The notes under the pieces are model-generated. The model was not told the origin of the DNA. It saw nothing but the letters and a program-made list of their open reading frames with translations, and made no database searches. Both the position numbers and the translations under genes were made by a program. Of a stretch of 6,060 nt of DNA, positions 1-6,060 are shown one piece after another (positions within the stretch are counted from its first letter, which is position 1; the number at the start of each line of letters is the position of its first letter). This stretch comes from a virus: the IMG/VR virus record IMGVR_UViG_3300020040_000006, positions 1 to 6,060 of that record; one strand, given 5' to 3'.

Positions 1-121
1 CGACGGTTACGTATCCATATGGGAGAAGAGCAAGGCATTAGAGTAAACTTCGAAGGCAATCAAATTTAATGCTGGGGTGATCGAGGCGACAACGAATAAG
101 GTAATCATTCGCGGGTGTCTC
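1..121. repeat. Terminal direct redundancy (left copy), identical to 5940-6060; a circular-contig overlap rather than a biological repeat
   Basis: Base-by-base comparison shows 1-121 = 5940-6060 with offset 5,939. The region contains the Rep 5' end (ATG at 38 = 5977) and the 3' end of the upstream ORF. Confidence 0.95.
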
Positions 122-361
122 GTCGGCAAACCAAGCAATAATAACTCGTTTCCTGCCTCGGTATGCGCCAATAGAATAGCGATAATCAATACTATTAACA
201 ACAGGAGAAAACCTGGGGCGAAAATCAAAATAATCCATAATCGAAAAGTAATACTTTGCGCTTCGAAAGACGGTACTTTCGAGCGCGAGAACTGCTCCGT
301 TACGCCGCTCGACGGCCTTAACGGCCGGGACGCTGCGCGTCTTCGAGCTCCATGGCTTCAC
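38..361 (-). CDS. Hypothetical basic small protein (107 aa from GTG at 361; 66 aa if ATG at 238), translationally coupled to Rep
   Basis: Minus-strand ORF. Its TAA stop (40-38) shares one base with the Rep ATG (38-36), giving TAATG. K+R is about 19 versus D+E about 10, including RGRKR. The start codon at 359-361 is GTG, not ATG, so the start is uncertain. I recognised no family motif. Confidence 0.55.
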   Translation of the reverse strand: MKPWSSKTRSVPAVKAVERRNGAVLALESTVFRSAKYYFSIMDYFDFRPRFSPVVNSIDYRYSIGAYRGRKRVIIAWFADETPANDYLIRCRLDHPSIKFDCLRSLL

Positions 362-402
362 TTCGCGACGTATATACCGAACAAGTTCGGTGAGTCTGAG
401 GA

Positions 403-438
403 TAAAAAAAATCCCAGGGGAGAGCGACTCCCCTGGGA
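403..438 (-). terminator. Rho-independent terminator for minus-strand transcription
   Basis: Perfect 10-bp stem: 412-421 tcccagggga pairs with 429-438 tcccctggga, with a 7-nt loop gagcgac. On the minus strand it is followed immediately by U8 (A8 at 404-411 on plus). It lies 47 nt downstream of the stop of ORF 485-808. Confidence 0.8.
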
Positions 439-484
439 GCCAGCGGGCTAAAGAATTCGGCCTCCAAGAGGACGAGTTACAACT

Positions 485-808
485 TTAGTCCCTTTTCCCT
501 TCTTCTTTCGACGTGACTTCATTGCAATCGATATCAAGGTTAAACATAAGAATGATCGTATTATCGAAGAACTCGATGCAGAAATCGGGAAGGGCCTCGC
601 AGACACCAACAAGGCCGGAGATATCCGAGTGGTCAACGTAGAGAGAATCGCTGATATGCGAACTCTTCAAATAGGGTGCAATAGGAGAATCTGCGATAGC
701 GCTGAAAGGGAGGGACTCAAATTGTCGGTCCTTGAGGTATCCTACCTGAGCGAGATCAATTTTGAGAGCCGGATTAATTCGACGAATAACAACATGAATC
801 TGTGTCAT
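485..808 (-). CDS. Hypothetical acidic protein, 107 aa; second gene of the accessory cassette
   Basis: ATG at 808-806 and TAA at 487-485. It begins 11 nt after the stop of the upstream ORF. D+E is about 17 versus K+R about 9. No recognisable motif. Contains repeat copy 526-545 (peptide FNLDID). Confidence 0.6.
   Translation of the reverse strand: MTQIHVVIRRINPALKIDLAQVGYLKDRQFESLPFSAIADSPIAPYLKSSHISDSLYVDHSDISGLVGVCEALPDFCIEFFDNTIILMFNLDIDCNEVTSKEEGKRD
526..545 (-). repeat. 20-nt repeat copy 1; viral strand reads GTTTAACCTTGATATCGATT
   Basis: 19/20 identical to 2926-2945, same orientation, offset exactly 2,400 nt. Contains the overlapping palindromes ATCGAT and GATATC, and CTTGATAT. Confidence 0.8.
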
Positions 809-819
809 AATAATATAGT

Positions 820-1137
820 TTAAAGAATAGATTTGAATTTACCGCAAAAACGACACCAAAGATTCGACTGGTCCACCCAAAAGTCGTAACCTTCCGGCGT
901 CATAGCGAACGGGAAAGACGTAGTAATGATAGCTTCGGCAGCCGCGCCTCGCAAACGGCATACACTGCGAAGTTTAATGCGCAAATTGTCGCGAAAAGAT
1001 CGATGATTCGGGTGAAATGCCTCATAATTCCTTTTATACGCAGCAAATGAATTTTGGCGAACAAGCCATTCAATGAACACGTACTCAAGAACATCGACAG
1101 AGAGGTCTGAGAGCCTGGAATTTTTGTTTGCTTTCAT
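820..1137 (-). CDS. Hypothetical basic protein, 105 aa; first gene of the accessory cassette
   Basis: ATG at 1137-1135 and TAA at 822-820. It lies 26 nt downstream of a Bacteroidota-type -7 box. Net charge is about +6. C-terminal motif TPEGYDFW...WCRFCGK includes a CxxC pair. I cannot assign a family. Confidence 0.6.
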   Translation of the reverse strand: MKANKNSRLSDLSVDVLEYVFIEWLVRQNSFAAYKRNYEAFHPNHRSFRDNLRIKLRSVCRLRGAAAEAIITTSFPFAMTPEGYDFWVDQSNLWCRFCGKFKSIL

Positions 1138-1163
1138 GGTAATATGGTTATTGGTTTACAACG

Positions 1164-1194
1164 CAAATGTACAACATGAAAAGAGAAACGCAAA
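1164..1194 (-). promoter_or_regulatory. Bacteroidota-type promoter (-33 TTTG / -7 TAnnTTTG) reading on the minus strand
   Basis: On the minus strand, TTTG (1194->1191) is followed by a 19-nt spacer and then TACATTTG (1171->1164). This is a perfect match to the Bacteroides sigma-AB consensus with canonical spacing. It sits in the largest gene-free gap (1138-1223), 26 nt upstream of the ATG at 1137. Confidence 0.6.
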
Positions 1195-1223
1195 GTTCAA
1201 AAGGTTGGAAGAATTGTTCAATT

Positions 1224-2474
1224 TTACCTCACATAACGACGGCTGGCCTTCGTGGTTCCTGCGTATCTGCCATCTTTGCCGTAAATCTCCCTACTTTCAT
1301 CGTAATCAACAGGAGCAGGGCGCTTTGTAGCGGCCGTACCGGCGATAGCCATAGCGCCAACCAAGGCAGTTCTCGCCAAACTATAGCCAAAAGCATTCTT
1401 ACTGGAGCGGTTTTGAAACCAGCGACCCGAGAGGTCTTGCTCACCTTCCGAAGCAGCGAGACCCATAAGCTTCTGATGAATCTGACGACCTGTCAGCTTT
1501 ATTGTCTTACCGGTAGGTTTGCCCTTTCCATCAACCTCGGGGACGTCTATTTCCGAATCCCAATTGATATTAAACCACTCGCGAAGATCGGCGAGGTTGA
1601 CTTTGCGTATCTCGGACTCAACATTTAAAACATCGCCAGAAGCGGCGGATTCGTAAGCGGCGGCAAAATCCCGGGCGATTTGAGCAGCGTAAACGGAATC
1701 AAAGTACTTGTCGTTGTATTTCTTGATCTGATTCGCTTCTTCAACATGCTTCGAATACATGGCGACGAAGTCTTGAAACTTATATGTAGCCATAAGATCG
1801 GCATACTCGGCGTCAGCAGTGTGGATGTCAGCCAGGGCGCGATTAAGGCGAATCAACTCAGAAACGTTATCGATGTGATGCTCCAAAGACTTCTTCTCCA
1901 AGTTATCCATCTCCTTTCGCCAGTCAGCGCTGTGAGTATTACCTCTCATGAGGTCAGCTTCGGCGTTATCGCGGTTAGCAGCAGCAGCGTTGCGATCGAC
2001 CGAGGAGCGAGCCATCATATTCTGTGCAATAGCCGCAGGATCGGAGGCTGCAAAACCACCGGGAGCAACGGGCGAGCCGCCGGAGGGGCCGGAGGCGGAA
2101 GGCATAGATGCAGAACCACCTGACATGGTAGCGTTAACGCCGACTCCGGAAGAACCTAAAACGGCGGCGGGCGTTACACCGGCCTTCAAATAACGGTCGA
2201 AAACCTTCGAGGGATCATTATAGGCATTTTCGTAATCAAACTGCTTCTGCCAATTAGCGTAAGAAAGTTCAGACTGCTTCTGCATCTGCTCGAGAGCATA
2301 CTGTTGTTGAAGCTTCATCTGTTTTTGCTGAAACTTCCACTGGCGACGAGCATTCATGCCGCCAAAAAGCTGGCCTAAAAAACCGTTGATCAGGCCGGTA
2401 GTGCCGGTAGAAGCAGCAGATTCTCCAAGGGCGCGGCCGAAAGAGGGGGAGGCAGTAGCAAAAGGGGTAGCCAT
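1224..2474 (-). CDS. VP2: Minor capsid / DNA pilot protein, VP2-like, 416 aa
   Basis: The Gly-rich hydrophobic N-terminus (TGLINGFLGQLFGG) is followed by a Q/K-rich helical segment (RRQWKFQQKQMKLQQQYALEQMQKQ). Next come a motif resembling the gokushovirus VP2 ...LKAGLNP... box (RYLKAGVTPAAVLG), a G/S/A/P low-complexity linker and a long helical region. I place the start at the ATG 2474-2472, 1 nt after the stop of the upstream ORF. The 2606 start in the ORF track would overlap that ORF. Confidence 0.75.
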   Translation of the reverse strand: MATPFATASPSFGRALGESAASTGTTGLINGFLGQLFGGMNARRQWKFQQKQMKLQQQYALEQMQKQSELSYANWQKQFDYENAYNDPSKVFDRYLKAGVTPAAVLGSSGVGVNATMSGGSASMPSASGPSGGSPVAPGGFAASDPAAIAQNMMARSSVDRNAAAANRDNAEADLMRGNTHSADWRKEMDNLEKKSLEHHIDNVSELIRLNRALADIHTADAEYADLMATYKFQDFVAMYSKHVEEANQIKKYNDKYFDSVYAAQIARDFAAAYESAASGDVLNVESEIRKVNLADLREWFNINWDSEIDVPEVDGKGKPTGKTIKLTGRQIHQKLMGLAASEGEQDLSGRWFQNRSSKNAFGYSLARTALVGAMAIAGTAATKRPAPVDYDESREIYGKDGRYAGTTKASRRYVR

Positions 2475-2475
2475 A

Positions 2476-2667
2476 CTACATGCGGATTGAATTGTTAGAA
2501 CGAATAATGTAGTCGACGCGCACCGTGTCGATGTGCACACCGCTGCGTTGCATCCTGGCCTGGGCGGAACAAGACGACAAGAAAAAAGCAGCCAAGGCAG
2601 CGACAATGGAAGAAACGAGTGTCCAAAAAGCCTTAGACTTGTAAAAGGGTTGTTTGGTATCAGACAT
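2476..2667 (-). CDS. Small predicted lipoprotein, 63-aa precursor (alternative in-frame ATG at 2778 gives 100 aa)
   Basis: From the ATG at 2667-2665 the sequence is MSDTKQPFYKSK (n-region), AFWTLVSSIVAALAAFF (h-region) and lipobox L-S-S-C (2580-2569, TTG TCG TCT TGT). This leaves a 31-aa mature peptide, CSAQARMQRSGVHIDTVRVDYIIRSNNSIRM. The TAG stop lies 1 nt before the VP2 ATG. Confidence 0.55.
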   Translation of the reverse strand: MSDTKQPFYKSKAFWTLVSSIVAALAAFFLSSCSAQARMQRSGVHIDTVRVDYIIRSNNSIRM

Positions 2668-2697
2668 AGGAATAAAATTTAAAGAACGATAGAAAAA

Positions 2698-2770
2698 TGC
2701 GCGAACTCTCCTGCAGTCGTTACCAATAACCTTCAGCAATTCACGAACTCTCGCAGAAGGGGTTCGCGCA
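2698..2770. repeat. 9-bp inverted repeat (tgcgcgaac / gttcgcgca) enclosing a duplicated cgaactctc(..)gcag motif
   Basis: 2698-2706 is the reverse complement of 2762-2770. Direct repeat cgaactctc occurs at 2702-2710 and 2744-2752, each followed by gcag. The region lies between the stop of ORF 2801-3097 and the ATG at 2667. Confidence 0.6.
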
Positions 2771-2800
2771 CGTAGCATATATCGTCAAGTAAAGGATGTA

Positions 2801-3097
2801 CTATTTTTCTTCAGAATCAGCAGGGCTTGAAGCGGACTTTGACTTATCGAGCTGAGAATCAATAAGTTCCTGACCGACCTCAAGACCGTCAAACTTATCC
2901 ATACGAGAGAAAGAATTAGGATCAAAATCGATATCAGGGTTAAACCTCTCTTCCTTCGCGAAATCGGAAGGTTCGGCTATCACATCCGGACGACCAGGAA
3001 GGACGTCGACGGACCCGGAACCGTCAAGAACGGAAAGAATACGCTGACCACGAGAGATATAGGCGGGAGCGTCCTCAAGTAACCAATCAAGTGCCAT
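2801..3097 (-). CDS. Strongly acidic 98-aa protein directly downstream of VP1; possible scaffolding-type (VP3-like) protein, function unproven
   Basis: ATG at 3097-3095, 12 nt after the VP1 stop, and TAG at 2803-2801. About 22 D+E versus 10 K+R. Serine/acidic tail SASSPADSEEK. Contains repeat copy 2926-2945 (peptide FNPDID). Confidence 0.6.
   Translation of the reverse strand: MALDWLLEDAPAYISRGQRILSVLDGSGSVDVLPGRPDVIAEPSDFAKEERFNPDIDFDPNSFSRMDKFDGLEVGQELIDSQLDKSKSASSPADSEEK
2926..2945 (-). repeat. 20-nt repeat copy 2; viral strand reads GTTTAACCCTGATATCGATT
   Basis: 19/20 identical to 526-545. The single mismatch is at 2937 versus 537. Confidence 0.8.
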
Positions 3098-3109
3098 AGA
3101 ATCAATAAA

Positions 3110-4903
3110 TTAACGATTAGACAAACGGGTTGCAAATGTTTTATTAACCAAATTCTTCTTCTGGATAGAATACGAAAGGTTGACGAAGAAATTGTCTTCC
3201 CGCTTAGAAGCAAACGGAGAGTTCACCTGATCGACATCCACGAACAAAAGGGAGTAATACTGGTTATAGCTTGCCGACAAAACACGCTGTTGAACCCAAT
3301 AAGAATAAAGAGGTACGCTGCTATCAGCGCCTTGAAATCGAGATAGTTGACCAAGAACCTCATCATACGAGGATCGAAACTCGTTAAAACACGGTTCGTA
3401 AGCCACGGCCTCCGAGGCCGAGGTGGTCCCAAAACCGAACTGGAATCCGGGAACATCCTGATAACCAATATCGTTGTAGATCGGATTAAAGTAATCAGCG
3501 CCAGTATAATGAAGGTAATCAGGGTAAACACCTGCCCAATAGTAAACAGGTCGAATACTCAACATATCGATCAAGTAGCCAGGTTCGCGAAAATAATAAG
3601 ACTGCCGACGACCGAGTCGATCGTTGAAAGCGATAGCGCCACCCTGCTGACCGAGAGGAGGCATGGAGTACGAATCATTTGCAAAATTGTTAGCACCAGC
3701 CTGATTCATAACGACTTGAACATTGACAGTCTGCGATGCACTAAATAAAAGCTTAGGTCGATCGACATGCTCAATCTTTGAAGCAAAAAAGGTTTCCAGC
3801 CAGTCGCTGTAACGAGAACCTCCAGCACCAAGCAAATCCTTGTATTCCTGAAGCCGCGAAGCGATAGCCAGTTGCGGAATAGTCGAAACGCCTGACATGG
3901 AGACGCCTTCAGAGCTACCAACGGGGAGCAACCGACTATAGCGATCGGGGTTCGAAGGTATAACGGCCATCGGATGGGCGACAAGGAACGACCCGAGTGT
4001 AGTGACAGCCGTAGTGCCAGCGTCGGTAGAAAACTGATCTGCAGGACCCGCGGTGGACAACGAAGAACTTCCGGGATAGATAGTAGAGACGGGATAGCCG
4101 TCCTTGGAGGCGGTAATCGTAGAGCCAAGGTCCGAAAGCAATATCTGGGAAAAAAGATTTCCTCTATTATACGTATTGTTCGAAGACGGCACAGCCGAAG
4201 GATAGAACTGACTCTCGAAATAAGCATCGAGGAATTCGAGGCTTCCGAATCTTTGCGAGAAAAATCTCGGCGTATCACTGAACTGAAGGACGTTGTATGT
4301 AGTACCGGTATTGTTAGGGATGAAATACCAGCTGCTGGGCCAAGCGAAAGAATAGAGTCCCCACTGGGAATAGCCGTAGTAGTTGCGGACGATATCCCAA
4401 TAAGCAAGATAAGAATCAGCAGTACACCAACCTAAAGGATATCCCAATTGAGCGGTCGAAAGGTTGGCCGACATAGGAACATTGCTGGAAGTTGCCACCG
4501 GGATAGAAGCAGGAATAATGCGTAACCAACGAAGCAACGAATTGGAATAGGGGTAGTTGTTGCCGGTAAACGGGTAGGACGCGGTCGACGCAGCGGCAAC
4601 GAAATTCAAGCTCAAATCATTCATATCGAACTTACTACTATTCGTCCTCATCTCGGGATGGTACAACTGAAGAGGCACCCAGAAACGATGCAAGCGAATA
4701 GTGTAAGGATTGAATGTAGGAACAGCGAGCGGATTGCTACGGACGTCAATACCTTGCTCAATGGATACGCGATCTCGAGCGTTGATAAAATCAATCCGCA
4801 CCGGATACAAAATACCCGGTGTACACGTAAAGGCCTTGCTCTCGGGGACATCATAGCGAGAGTAGCCGTTTACAGCGTGTGAGATAAAAGGTTGTTTTCC
4901 CAT
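3110..4903 (-). CDS. VP1: Major capsid protein, Microviridae VP1/F family, 597 aa
   Basis: Largest ORF, with ATG 3 nt after the Rep stop. The N-terminal block (SRYDVPESKAFTCTPGILYPVRIDFINARDRV) resembles the conserved microvirus capsid N-terminus (..G.L.P.....PGD-type). The protein is very rich in aromatics, Ser and Asn. The C-terminal EDNFFVNLSYSI...TRL block resembles the terminal strands of F/VP1. Size and position fit the family. Confidence 0.88.
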   Translation of the reverse strand: MGKQPFISHAVNGYSRYDVPESKAFTCTPGILYPVRIDFINARDRVSIEQGIDVRSNPLAVPTFNPYTIRLHRFWVPLQLYHPEMRTNSSKFDMNDLSLNFVAAASTASYPFTGNNYPYSNSLLRWLRIIPASIPVATSSNVPMSANLSTAQLGYPLGWCTADSYLAYWDIVRNYYGYSQWGLYSFAWPSSWYFIPNNTGTTYNVLQFSDTPRFFSQRFGSLEFLDAYFESQFYPSAVPSSNNTYNRGNLFSQILLSDLGSTITASKDGYPVSTIYPGSSSLSTAGPADQFSTDAGTTAVTTLGSFLVAHPMAVIPSNPDRYSRLLPVGSSEGVSMSGVSTIPQLAIASRLQEYKDLLGAGGSRYSDWLETFFASKIEHVDRPKLLFSASQTVNVQVVMNQAGANNFANDSYSMPPLGQQGGAIAFNDRLGRRQSYYFREPGYLIDMLSIRPVYYWAGVYPDYLHYTGADYFNPIYNDIGYQDVPGFQFGFGTTSASEAVAYEPCFNEFRSSYDEVLGQLSRFQGADSSVPLYSYWVQQRVLSASYNQYYSLLFVDVDQVNSPFASKREDNFFVNLSYSIQKKNLVNKTFATRLSNR

Positions 4904-4906
4904 AAA

Positions 4907-5977
4907 TTAAATGTTTAGTTGAAGTTTATAATGGTCTCTCCAAAACTGGAGAATGTCCATATCTAACCAAGTGGGAGGGTCAAAGTCGGGCATCTTGCGA
5001 GAAGAGGCGGAAAAACGCATTATTTGCTTTTGCTCCCACGTATACGACGCTCTACGGGATACGGAGGAATCGAGGGCGAACCGCTTAACGCACAGAGACA
5101 CAATACGCTTAACCAGAGGAGACTTGCTAAAACGTGCATAAGAATCAGCAGCGGTAATCGCGCGAGCAACCTCGTCTTCTGATTTGAGATATCTAAGATA
5201 ATAACGAGGAATCGAGTAATTATAACTAATACGCTTCTCAAAATCAAAATAAGACCACGACGAAGCACGGGCAGAAGGGCGAGGCATATAACCAAGAAAA
5301 TCACCAACGCCAGCAGATACGAATTTTCGCGTATAACGGCGATGTTGGAGGAGGCAAGATAAAGGCGTAAGGTTTCCATTTACGGTAACATATTTATCCG
5401 AAATTTCTTCGGGATTAAACTGAATCTGTTTAGTAACATATTTAACGCAGTATCGAGCGCGCTTATGAGTGGCTTTAGCTAACCACACAAAACCAAGGTC
5501 TCGAACGGCGGAACGAATAGTGTTATAAAGGACGTTTGTGCCAAACAAAAAACCGTGAAAATGCAGCCGAGGCTCATTTCCTGTTTCTGGATGAGTACCA
5601 AACTCCTGGAAAAAGGCATGCTTAAACGAATGACCGAGCTTGTGGCGGAGACGTTCGTTGAATCGGCGGATAAATCGAGACGGATCAAGCAAAGCTTCAT
5701 TGTAATATTTAGGCGATATGGTAATCGTAATAAAAACAGCCTGCTGATGCTCAGCCTTACATCGAGCAAGCTCACGCTCTAAACGCACGAACCAATCATT
5801 ACGCTGACGACGCAAGCAGTCCTCACACTTTCCACACGGAACCATCAACCATTGGCGGGCGATATCCCAAGGGCGAAGAGCAAGCGCAGACTTGGCAACA
5901 TCAGAGCCATCTCGGCAAGGGTTCTTCTTGTCAAAATAGCGACGGTTACGTATCCATATGGGAGAAGAGCAAGGCAT
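4907..5977 (-). CDS. VP4: Rolling-circle replication initiator, Microviridae VP4 / phiX A-like HUH endonuclease, 356 aa
   Basis: N-terminus MPCSSPIW and Cys cluster CGKCEDC (5836-5816). Motif I is VFITITISP. The HUH motif is LHFHGFLF, with H-F-H encoded by CAT TTT CAC at 5563-5555. The two-tyrosine catalytic motif YCVKYVTK (5452-5429) parallels phiX174 YVAKYVNK. The ORF track starts at a TTG (5998). I prefer the first ATG at 5977, which forms TAATG with the upstream ORF. Confidence 0.93.
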   Translation of the reverse strand: MPCSSPIWIRNRRYFDKKNPCRDGSDVAKSALALRPWDIARQWLMVPCGKCEDCLRRQRNDWFVRLERELARCKAEHQQAVFITITISPKYYNEALLDPSRFIRRFNERLRHKLGHSFKHAFFQEFGTHPETGNEPRLHFHGFLFGTNVLYNTIRSAVRDLGFVWLAKATHKRARYCVKYVTKQIQFNPEEISDKYVTVNGNLTPLSCLLQHRRYTRKFVSAGVGDFLGYMPRPSARASSWSYFDFEKRISYNYSIPRYYLRYLKSEDEVARAITAADSYARFSKSPLVKRIVSLCVKRFALDSSVSRRASYTWEQKQIMRFSASSRKMPDFDPPTWLDMDILQFWRDHYKLQLNI

Positions 5978-6060
5978 TAGAGTAAACTTCGAAGGCAATC
6001 AAATTTAATGCTGGGGTGATCGAGGCGACAACGAATAAGGTAATCATTCGCGGGTGTCTC
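5940..6060. repeat. Terminal direct redundancy (right copy), identical to 1-121
   Basis: Same comparison as above. The identity runs to the last base of the window. Confidence 0.95.

Follow-up and report, generated by a model that had tools for sequence, protein, structure and literature searches.

A promoter-to-hairpin unit with a J/VP8-like gene between VP2 and Rep in a clade of animal-gut microviruses

Does the DNA between the pilot-protein gene VP2 and Rep of a gut microvirus carry accessory cargo, or does it belong to the core genome? The question is raised by positions 403–1223 of a 6,060-nt stretch, referred to here as the window (IMG/VR record IMGVR_UViG_3300020040_000006, positions 1–6,060). 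A sequence-only reading had described this region as a self-contained accessory cassette of two genes with its own promoter and terminator. The ends of the window are identical (bases 1–121 = 5940–6060 in a self-comparison); therefore the window corresponds to one circular microvirus genome of 5,939 nt plus the overlap. The minus strand carries every sizeable open reading frame (ORF) of this genome, in the order VP1-(98 aa)-(63 aa)-VP2-A-B-J-(C)-Rep. The unit from promoter to terminator comprises 821 of the 5,939 nt (13.8%), in agreement with the earlier estimate of about 14%.

Comparison with about 80 related genomes, 68 of them gathered from IMG/VR, suggests a different answer from that of the sequence-only reading. 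The region is probably the clade's conserved and highly expressed transcription unit for morphogenesis and DNA packaging, and not an accessory cargo cassette. It comprises the following features.

1191..1194, minus strand: TTTG box, −33-like, of the Bacteroidetes sigma-ABfr type (full motif match)
1164..1171, minus strand: −7 box TACATTTG (TAnnTTTG; motif and conservation)
1146..1159, minus strand: leader block GTAAACCAATAACC, predicted 5′ untranslated region (conservation footprint)
1137..820, minus strand: ORF A, 105 aa, net charge +6, isoelectric point (pI) 9.6 (ORF with homologs)
808..485, minus strand: ORF B, 107 aa, net charge −8, pI 4.6 (ORF with homologs)
522..448, minus strand: J/VP8-like gene, 24 aa, MKSRRKKKGKGTKVVTRPLGGRIL, in the +1 frame relative to ORF B (conserved ORF)
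438..404, minus strand: GC-rich hairpin followed by T8, intrinsic-terminator-like (stem-loop 438..412, T8 411..404)

The J-like gene and ORF B

Two genes of about 105 aa, one basic and one acidic, had been recognized in the region, and both are present with the charges given above. They are joined by a third. The J-like ORF covers the last 38 nt of ORF B and continues for 37 nt beyond them, and the approximately 36 nt past the ORF B stop show codon-like conservation. Its ATG and its stop are found in all 76 loci with enough sequence context, with identical geometry in 73 of them. Among 70 distinct DNA versions the entropies at codon positions 1/2/3 of the J-like frame are 0.18/0.14/0.89, and downstream of the ORF B stop they are 0.19/0.08/0.96. 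Inside the overlap, the ORF B frame has entropies of 0.93/0.19/0.10. The patterns of the two frames thus indicate that the J-like frame is the one under selection in the overlap. The ratio of nonsynonymous to synonymous substitution rates (dN/dS) is about 0.07 for the J-like gene, compared to 0.18 for ORF B and 0.22–0.31 for ORF A. Both larger ORFs are accordingly under purifying selection and conserved as coding in relatives, as the sequence-only reading had assumed.

Two features of the window would suit synthesis of the basic peptide only as a frameshifted C-terminal extension of ORF B, namely an A/G-rich run in the overlap (AAAGAAGAAGGGAAAAGGG) and a J frame that stays open over 62 codons. 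This explanation is extremely improbable in view of the invariant ATG. Moreover, the J frame is closed by a stop 2–12 codons 5′ of the ATG in several relatives (e.g. L008 and L001). A fusion of ORF B and the J-like gene by frameshifting was rejected, as these upstream stops leave almost no room for a shift site.

Ten of the 24 residues of the J-like peptide are Lys or Arg (~42%; net charge +10, pI 12.0), and eight of these ten lie within residues 2–13. The J and VP8 proteins are Arg/Lys-rich peptides of 25–40 aa with a hydrophobic C-terminus buried in the capsid, and their structural conservation is limited to the last four residues (PMC3091885, PMC11281519, PMC9865509). The J-like peptide resembles them in its small size, in the concentration of basic residues near the N-terminus and, as a sequence pattern, in its hydrophobic C-terminus. 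It ends in PLGGRIL, the reference proteins in YVGGQQF (phiX174 J), YVGGTQY (G4 J), MRGGIRL (phiMH2K VP8) and MRGGIRF (Chp2 ORF8). A C-terminal GG-x-x-hydrophobic motif is common to all five.

Relatives with only 32–43% VP1 identity to the window keep the layout of two ORFs plus J. Similar unannotated ORFs are found at the same place (MSRKNRRRKKSGRRTITQPLLGSVL, MSRKNRRRKKSGRRVVHRPLLGPVM and MKKRRGGRKSRPKGPKVVRLTLGGRTL), overlapping ORF2 in one of these relatives and lying downstream of ORF2 in two. The J-like gene is unannotated in every GenBank record examined, and a search with the 62-aa open frame as query found it called once among 5.8 billion database proteins, as a 39-aa "hypothetical protein". 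An earlier study did not detect such a gene in microvirus proviruses of Bacteroidetes (PMC3091885), which do not necessarily belong to this clade.

All 486 homologs of ORF B are unnamed and come from contigs of ~6 kb. The gene occurs in every one of the 76 loci examined, always directly 5′ of the J-like gene and overlapping it in all but the most distant relatives; an 11-nt spacer separates it from ORF A. Both ORF B and the J-like gene belong to the core of the clade, and the term accessory does not apply to them. The predicted structure of ORF B is a beta-rich alpha/beta fold (predicted local distance difference test, pLDDT, 86.5; predicted template modelling score, pTM, 0.79). A Foldseek search of the PDB with this model gave nothing significant (best hit GFRP, E = 0.24, TM-score 0.36). 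In BFVD the model matches only uncharacterised microvirus proteins, with identities down to 14–24% at TM-scores of ~0.6–0.7. Most likely, ORF B is an assembly or packaging factor in the positional slot of gokushovirus VP3/VP5, as its position, co-expression and conservation suggest.

ORF A and the accessory interpretation

ORF A has 63 homologs, all unnamed and all on contigs of about 6 kb, and it is the fastest-diverging gene of the genome. Even among genomes with a VP1 ~90% identical to that of the window, ORF A reaches a median identity of 43%; the corresponding medians are ~64% for ORF B, ~90% for J and ~88% for Rep. Its alleles form two length classes of 105 and 106 aa. Of the 76 loci, 74 contain the gene; it is missing from the complete genomes L002 and L008. 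In L002 the −7 box and the leader block are retained directly 5′ of ORF B; in L008 the −7 box is retained at a different spacing and the leader block is gone. In distant relatives the slot of ORF A is occupied by unrelated proteins. The idea that the cassette is variable or swappable among relatives is therefore borne out for ORF A, which has swapped alleles and is absent from two genomes, but not for ORF B and the J-like gene. From its position, co-expression and conservation, ORF A appears to be a rapidly diverging, dispensable first gene.

The model of ORF A consists of four helices (pLDDT 85, pTM 0.78) and has no significant Foldseek match in the PDB (best E = 3.3). The confident models of ORF A and ORF B suggest novel folds. 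Neither protein matched Pfam, NCBIfam, PADLOC or PDB sequence profiles; weak PHROG matches of unknown function to residues 69–89 of ORF A were the sole result of the family scans. The protein contains a module of the form F-x-[WM]-x-x-T-x-EG-x-x-FW...W. An exhaustive profile search with ORF A collected 98 proteins, including proteins of 180–600 aa with two to four copies of the module, which in these multi-copy relatives ends in a-F-x-W-x-x-T-P-E-G-x-x-F-W-x6-W. None of the 98 has a name or a Pfam domain, and the multi-repeat relatives are absent from phage GenBank records. One protein with a WxxTPEGxxFW module is encoded at 6001..6117 of a 104-kb viral contig, L089 (IMGVR_UViG_3300045988_070924); the module is therefore not confined to microviruses.

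The CxxC motif noticed earlier in the basic protein is present in the window (C95 and C98), but it is not conserved. Of 27 aligned homologs, most have Arg in place of C95, and C98 alone is invariant. A zinc site at this motif was accordingly rejected.

These results bear on the view that the virion can do without the entire unit, which would be transcribed independently as an accessory module or constitute a toxin-antitoxin or regulator-partner pair. The opposite charges of ORF A and ORF B and the unit's own promoter speak for it, as does the lack of similarity of either protein to known core microvirus proteins. However, the unit contains a universally conserved J/VP8-type gene and the core gene ORF B, it is syntenic with the VP3-VP5-VP8 block of gokushoviruses, and ORF B occurs without ORF A in L002 and L008, which speaks against an obligate pair. 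Furthermore, the CxxC is not conserved, and PADLOC, Pfam and NCBIfam gave no defence or toxin-antitoxin domain. An accessory module of this kind is very improbable, and the label fits ORF A at most.

Across the genomes L012–L080, VP1 identity to the window is bimodal (~90% or ~70%), as is that of VP2 (~90% or ~50%). VP1 identity is also uncorrelated with the identities of other genes, so that mosaicism extends over the whole genome. These two observations point to frequent recombination among co-occurring genomes of the same sample series.

The unit may also have a mixed character, in which ORF B and the J-like gene form a core packaging operon while ORF A is a fast-evolving gene of host interaction (takeover, anti-defence or exclusion) exchanged among co-circulating phages. 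The strong divergence of ORF A, its two deep allelic classes, its deletion from L002 and L008, the unrelated proteins in its slot and the occurrence of its module in multi-repeat proteins outside microviruses are all consistent with this. On the other hand, its dN/dS indicates purifying rather than diversifying selection overall, and no PADLOC, Pfam or PDB match points to an activity. Mosaicism is not specific to ORF A either, and the gene is retained in nearly all loci. We regard this mixed reading as possible, though on balance unlikely. A bolder version would make ORF A a fast-evolving, allele-swapped host-interaction factor from a large, unnamed family of helix-rich modules of ~60–90 aa. 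ORF B would be a chaperone of new fold for assembly or packaging, present across microviruses and linked in its translation to the J-like peptide, and the two proteins would be unrelated substitutes for the functions of VP3 and VP5. This proposal is doubtful.

Promoter, leader and terminator-like hairpin

An 86-nt gap separates the end of VP2 (1224) from the ATG of ORF A (1137). It had been singled out as by far the largest gap after a core gene; the gap is as described, but the 209 nt from the J-like stop to ORF C form a longer non-coding stretch. TTTG-N19-TACATTTG at 1194..1164 (minus strand) is the sole full match in the genome to the sigma-ABfr consensus, which consists of a −7 box TAnnTTTG and a −33 box TTTG at a spacing of ~19 nt (PMC7366714). 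The motif alone is weak evidence, with at least one match in 19 of 200 shuffles. A scan of the gap for sigma-70 promoters found nothing.

Conservation of the motif was inspected in 75 distinct upstream regions of relatives. An exact TAnnTTTG is present in 61 of them and ends exactly 26 nt 5′ of the ATG in 54 of these 61. Eight of the 14 regions without an exact box have one-mismatch variants at the same position, and the remaining six were anchored at the wrong start in the analysis. An exact TTTG at a spacing of 17–21 nt is found in 39 of the 75, a partial match in 57. The consensus footprint consists of a TTTG-like box, a variable T-rich spacer, TATaTTTG, 4 nt and the near-invariant block GTAAACCAATAACC. 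This block is the most conserved non-coding stretch of the footprint and occurs once in the genome. It places A at positions −11, −12, −14 and −15, and the bases that follow place A at −3 and −6. In Bacteroidetes, A at these leader positions correlates with translation efficiency, without Shine-Dalgarno sequences (PMC7366714). The block was rejected as a structured element (folding z-score −0.04).

A second TAnnTTTG box (TAAATTTG) lies at 61..68 (= 6000..6007) on the minus strand, 22 nt 5′ of the Rep ATG, and is found at the same position in 50 of 80 genomes. It is probably the Rep/VP1 promoter. Coding constraint may also contribute to its conservation, because the box sits inside the coding sequence of ORF C.

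The window contains no terminator-like site between VP2 and the promoter. Transcripts from upstream would thus run through the unit and end at the same hairpin, and the unit is not self-contained in the sense first proposed. A different arrangement is seen in a distant relative, L088 (MZ089782), at 3244..3482. There, a long GC-rich hairpin lies between VP2 and a perfect TTTG-N19-TATCTTTG promoter, so that a terminator-like element precedes the unit, and the J-like ORF follows ORF2 after ~115 nt without overlap.

The hairpin at the 3′ end has an 11-bp stem with eight G-C pairs and a 5-nt loop, followed by T8. The GC-rich stem, short loop and U-tract are those of an intrinsic terminator. Every other terminator-like site in the genome has only 5–6 pairs, which confirms the earlier description of this hairpin as the genome's only strong terminator. 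It follows the J-like stop in most relatives, with z < −2 in 85% of 73 distinct segments and a median minimum free energy of −23.8 kcal/mol in 48 nt. L004 and L011 lack it, since in both of them ORF C follows immediately on the J-like stop. Seven of ten pairs show compensatory changes across 24 diverse, aligned versions, and G-U pairs are frequent; the hairpin is therefore selected on the coding (viral) strand in a strand-specific manner. The T-run is strong in only about a third of the relatives and weak in many. The stem of one class of relatives is interrupted by two small hairpins. Together with the positional conservation of the promoter boxes, the covariation of the hairpin upholds the description of the region as a module resembling a transcription unit.

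It is conceivable that the hairpin acts mainly in the packaged plus-strand single-stranded DNA (ssDNA), as a complementary-strand origin, a primosome site or a packaging signal. The unit would then have no 3′ delimitation. The strand-specific structure with its many G-U/G-T pairs would suit such a role, the viral strand having the sense of the mRNA, and the weak T-run of most relatives, the inner hairpins and the adjacent multi-hairpin element point in the same direction. There is also precedent, as phiX174 and G4 use intergenic hairpins for complementary-strand initiation (G4 annotation; PMC9865509). Against this stand the textbook T8 tail in the window and the site a few nucleotides past the J-like stop, which mirrors TJ of phiX174. 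Roles in DNA and as a terminator are moreover not mutually exclusive. A function mainly in ssDNA appears rather unlikely.

Further structured elements lie between the hairpin and ORF C. An Rfam scan of the whole window returned no family. At 370..390 (minus strand) a hairpin CCGAAC-TT-GTTCGG is followed by TATATAC, and relatives retain it with covarying stems (CCGAAT/ATTCGG, CCGGAT/ATCCGG, CCGGC/GCCGG and TCGCT/AGCGA). It contains AACTTG, which also occurs in the nick-site region of phiX174, and it is a candidate for the viral-strand origin. A GC-rich multi-hairpin element of ~110 nt at ~243..365 (minus strand) includes the stems GACGC-GCA-GCGTC, CGGCC-GTTAA-GGCCG and GCGCTCGAAAG...CTTTCGAAGCGC. 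It is also present in MG945664 with 90% identity, has no Rfam family and is a candidate for the complementary-strand origin. The spacer from the J-like stop to ORF C falls into length classes of ~70, 100, 180 and 208 nt that differ in their structured inserts.

Taken as a morphogenesis and packaging unit, the region would work as follows. Transcription from the host-type promoter (Bacteroidota sigma-ABfr) between VP2 and ORF A would begin near 1157 and give an mRNA with an A-rich leader of ~20 nt, suited to translation without Shine-Dalgarno sequences. This mRNA would encode ORF A, ORF B and the 24-aa J/VP8-type protein and would end at the hairpin and T8. The same site would terminate a longer transcript that starts at the second −7 box, 5′ of Rep. 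Because the hairpin is the only strong terminator and all genes lie on one strand, the three genes are proposed to be present on every viral mRNA and to have the highest dosage. The basic N-terminus of the J-like peptide would neutralise and condense the ssDNA, and its hydrophobic GG-R-I-L end would, by analogy with J and VP8, anchor in the inner surface of VP1. In characterised microviruses, J-type proteins are essential packaging components.

Several observations count against a morphogenesis and packaging unit. The J-like peptide matches neither Pfam (Microvir_J) nor PHROG models. This test says little outside Bullavirinae, because the accepted phiMH2K VP8 has no match either, whereas G4 J does (E = 2e-16). 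Comparison of ORF A, ORF B and the 98-aa ORF with the B, C, D and K proteins of phiX/G4 and with gokushovirus VP3 and VP5 gave hhalign probabilities below 1% throughout; the VP3 and VP5 reference profiles were built from two to three sequences each, and broader local alignments were negative as well. ORF A and ORF B match neither Chlamy_scaf nor Phage_B/C of Pfam. The claim that neither ORF resembles a core microvirus protein thus stands in these comparisons, and what they have in common with VP3/VP5 is synteny only. Known microvirus scaffolds are helical or disordered, and the compact beta-rich fold predicted for ORF B is unlike them. The identities of ORF A and ORF B are independent of VP1 identity, which is unexpected for proteins in contact with the capsid. 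Searches of GTDB genomes with ORF B and VP1 as queries yielded no provirus. The weakness of the T-run in many relatives belongs here as well.

A competing candidate for a scaffold is also present. The 98-aa ORF directly 3′ of VP1 (2801..3097, minus strand) is very acidic (net charge −12) and ~85% identical in relatives. For Bacteroidetes proviruses, Krupovic and Forterre predicted that an internal scaffold of the VP3 type is encoded after VP1 (PMC3091885), which makes this ORF a positional candidate for VP3.

Neighbouring genes and known microvirus systems

The remaining genes of the window are listed below.

5977..4907, minus strand: Rep/VP4 (matches PF23343 and phrog_942)
4903..3110, minus strand: VP1 (matches Phage_F and phrog_514)
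3097..2801, minus strand: 98-aa acidic ORF (ORF list)
2778/2667..2476, minus strand: ORF of 63–100 aa (ORF list)
2474..1224, minus strand: VP2 pilot protein (matches phrog_8689)
238..38, minus strand: ORF C, 66 aa (start Met as in most relatives)

Scans of Pfam, PHROGs, NCBIfam and PADLOC were uninformative for ORF C, the 98-aa ORF and the 100-aa ORF. The 63-aa product (MSDTKQPFYKSKAFWTLVSSIVAALAAFFLSSC..., 2476..2667, minus strand) is ~87% identical in relatives and has an n-region, an h-region and a lipobox-like L-S-S-C. It resembles a lipoprotein signal peptide and is, judged by these motifs, a candidate lysis or superinfection-exclusion lipoprotein. The 107-aa ORF with a GTG start at 38..361 (minus strand) is probably only the 66-aa ORF C (MDYFDFRPRFSPVV...), a basic protein (pI 9.1) encoded in 80 of 81 genomes. 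Together with the Rep ATG, the TAA of ORF C forms the overlap TAATG, an arrangement that suggests translational coupling of the two genes. ORF C is a positional candidate for a C/VP5-like partner of Rep.

The clade consists of animal-gut microviruses of ~6 kb that are abundant in metagenomes and whose small genes carry no annotation beyond "hypothetical". The closest annotated records are microviruses that are ~70–75% identical to the window, come from faeces of pig, deer, civet, rodent, lemur and tortoise, and have the same gene order. For this clade, the J-like gene would supply the small DNA-binding protein known from characterised microviruses. The elements described here would make up a compact architecture for expression, in which two promoters and one terminator are combined with transcription and translation signals of the Bacteroidetes style, and which supports a Bacteroidota host. 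ORF B, as a core protein with a predicted novel fold, and ORF A, as a hypervariable protein with a widespread unnamed module, are the proteins most worth characterising.

Among known systems, the gokushoviruses provide a positional parallel. The gene order is VP1-VP2-VP3-VP5-VP8-Rep in phiMH2K and VP1-VP2-VP3-ORF8-Rep in Chp2. Since these orders align with that of the window between VP2 and Rep, the A-B-J block occupies the position of VP3-(VP5)-VP8. In both cases, a J-like peptide with a GG-x-x-hydrophobic end comes after one or two small proteins. In contrast to the gokushovirus block, where these are VP3 and VP5, neither ORF A nor ORF B resembles VP3 or VP5 at the sequence or profile level, the J-like ORF is shorter (24 aa instead of 38–44 aa) and overlaps the upstream gene, and the additional ORF C lies between the J-like gene and Rep.

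The pD-D(E)-J-TJ segment of phiX174 is comparable in its organization. It likewise combines an internal promoter, a morphogenesis gene (the role proposed here for ORF B) and a tiny basic packaging protein that overlaps or abuts the preceding gene. A GC-rich hairpin follows a few nucleotides after the J stop, TJ being located 6 nt after it in phiX174. The genes D/E/J are the most highly expressed set of phiX174 and are bounded by pD and TJ (PMC11527146). The two units differ in that the promoter of the window is of the Bacteroidetes sigma-ABfr type and not of the sigma-70 type, and in that ORF A and ORF B are unrelated to D and E. Furthermore, the unit of the window lies between VP2 and Rep, whereas that of phiX174 is located 5′ of the capsid gene, and the hairpin of the window is apparently the only strong terminator, whereas phiX174 has four leaky ones.

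The J-like peptide itself can be compared with the J and VP8 proteins of Microviridae. In contrast to G4 J, it has no hidden Markov model match to Microvir_J; the accepted gokushovirus VP8 has none either. Its 24 residues are close to the 25 of G4 J, followed by phiX J and phiMH2K VP8 with 38 each and Chp2 ORF8 with 44. The basic N-terminal half and the hydrophobic last residue after GG-x-x are shared with these proteins, and the peptide is conserved throughout the clade. The final residue is Leu, as in phiMH2K VP8, while in phiX J, G4 J and Chp2 ORF8 it is Phe or Tyr.

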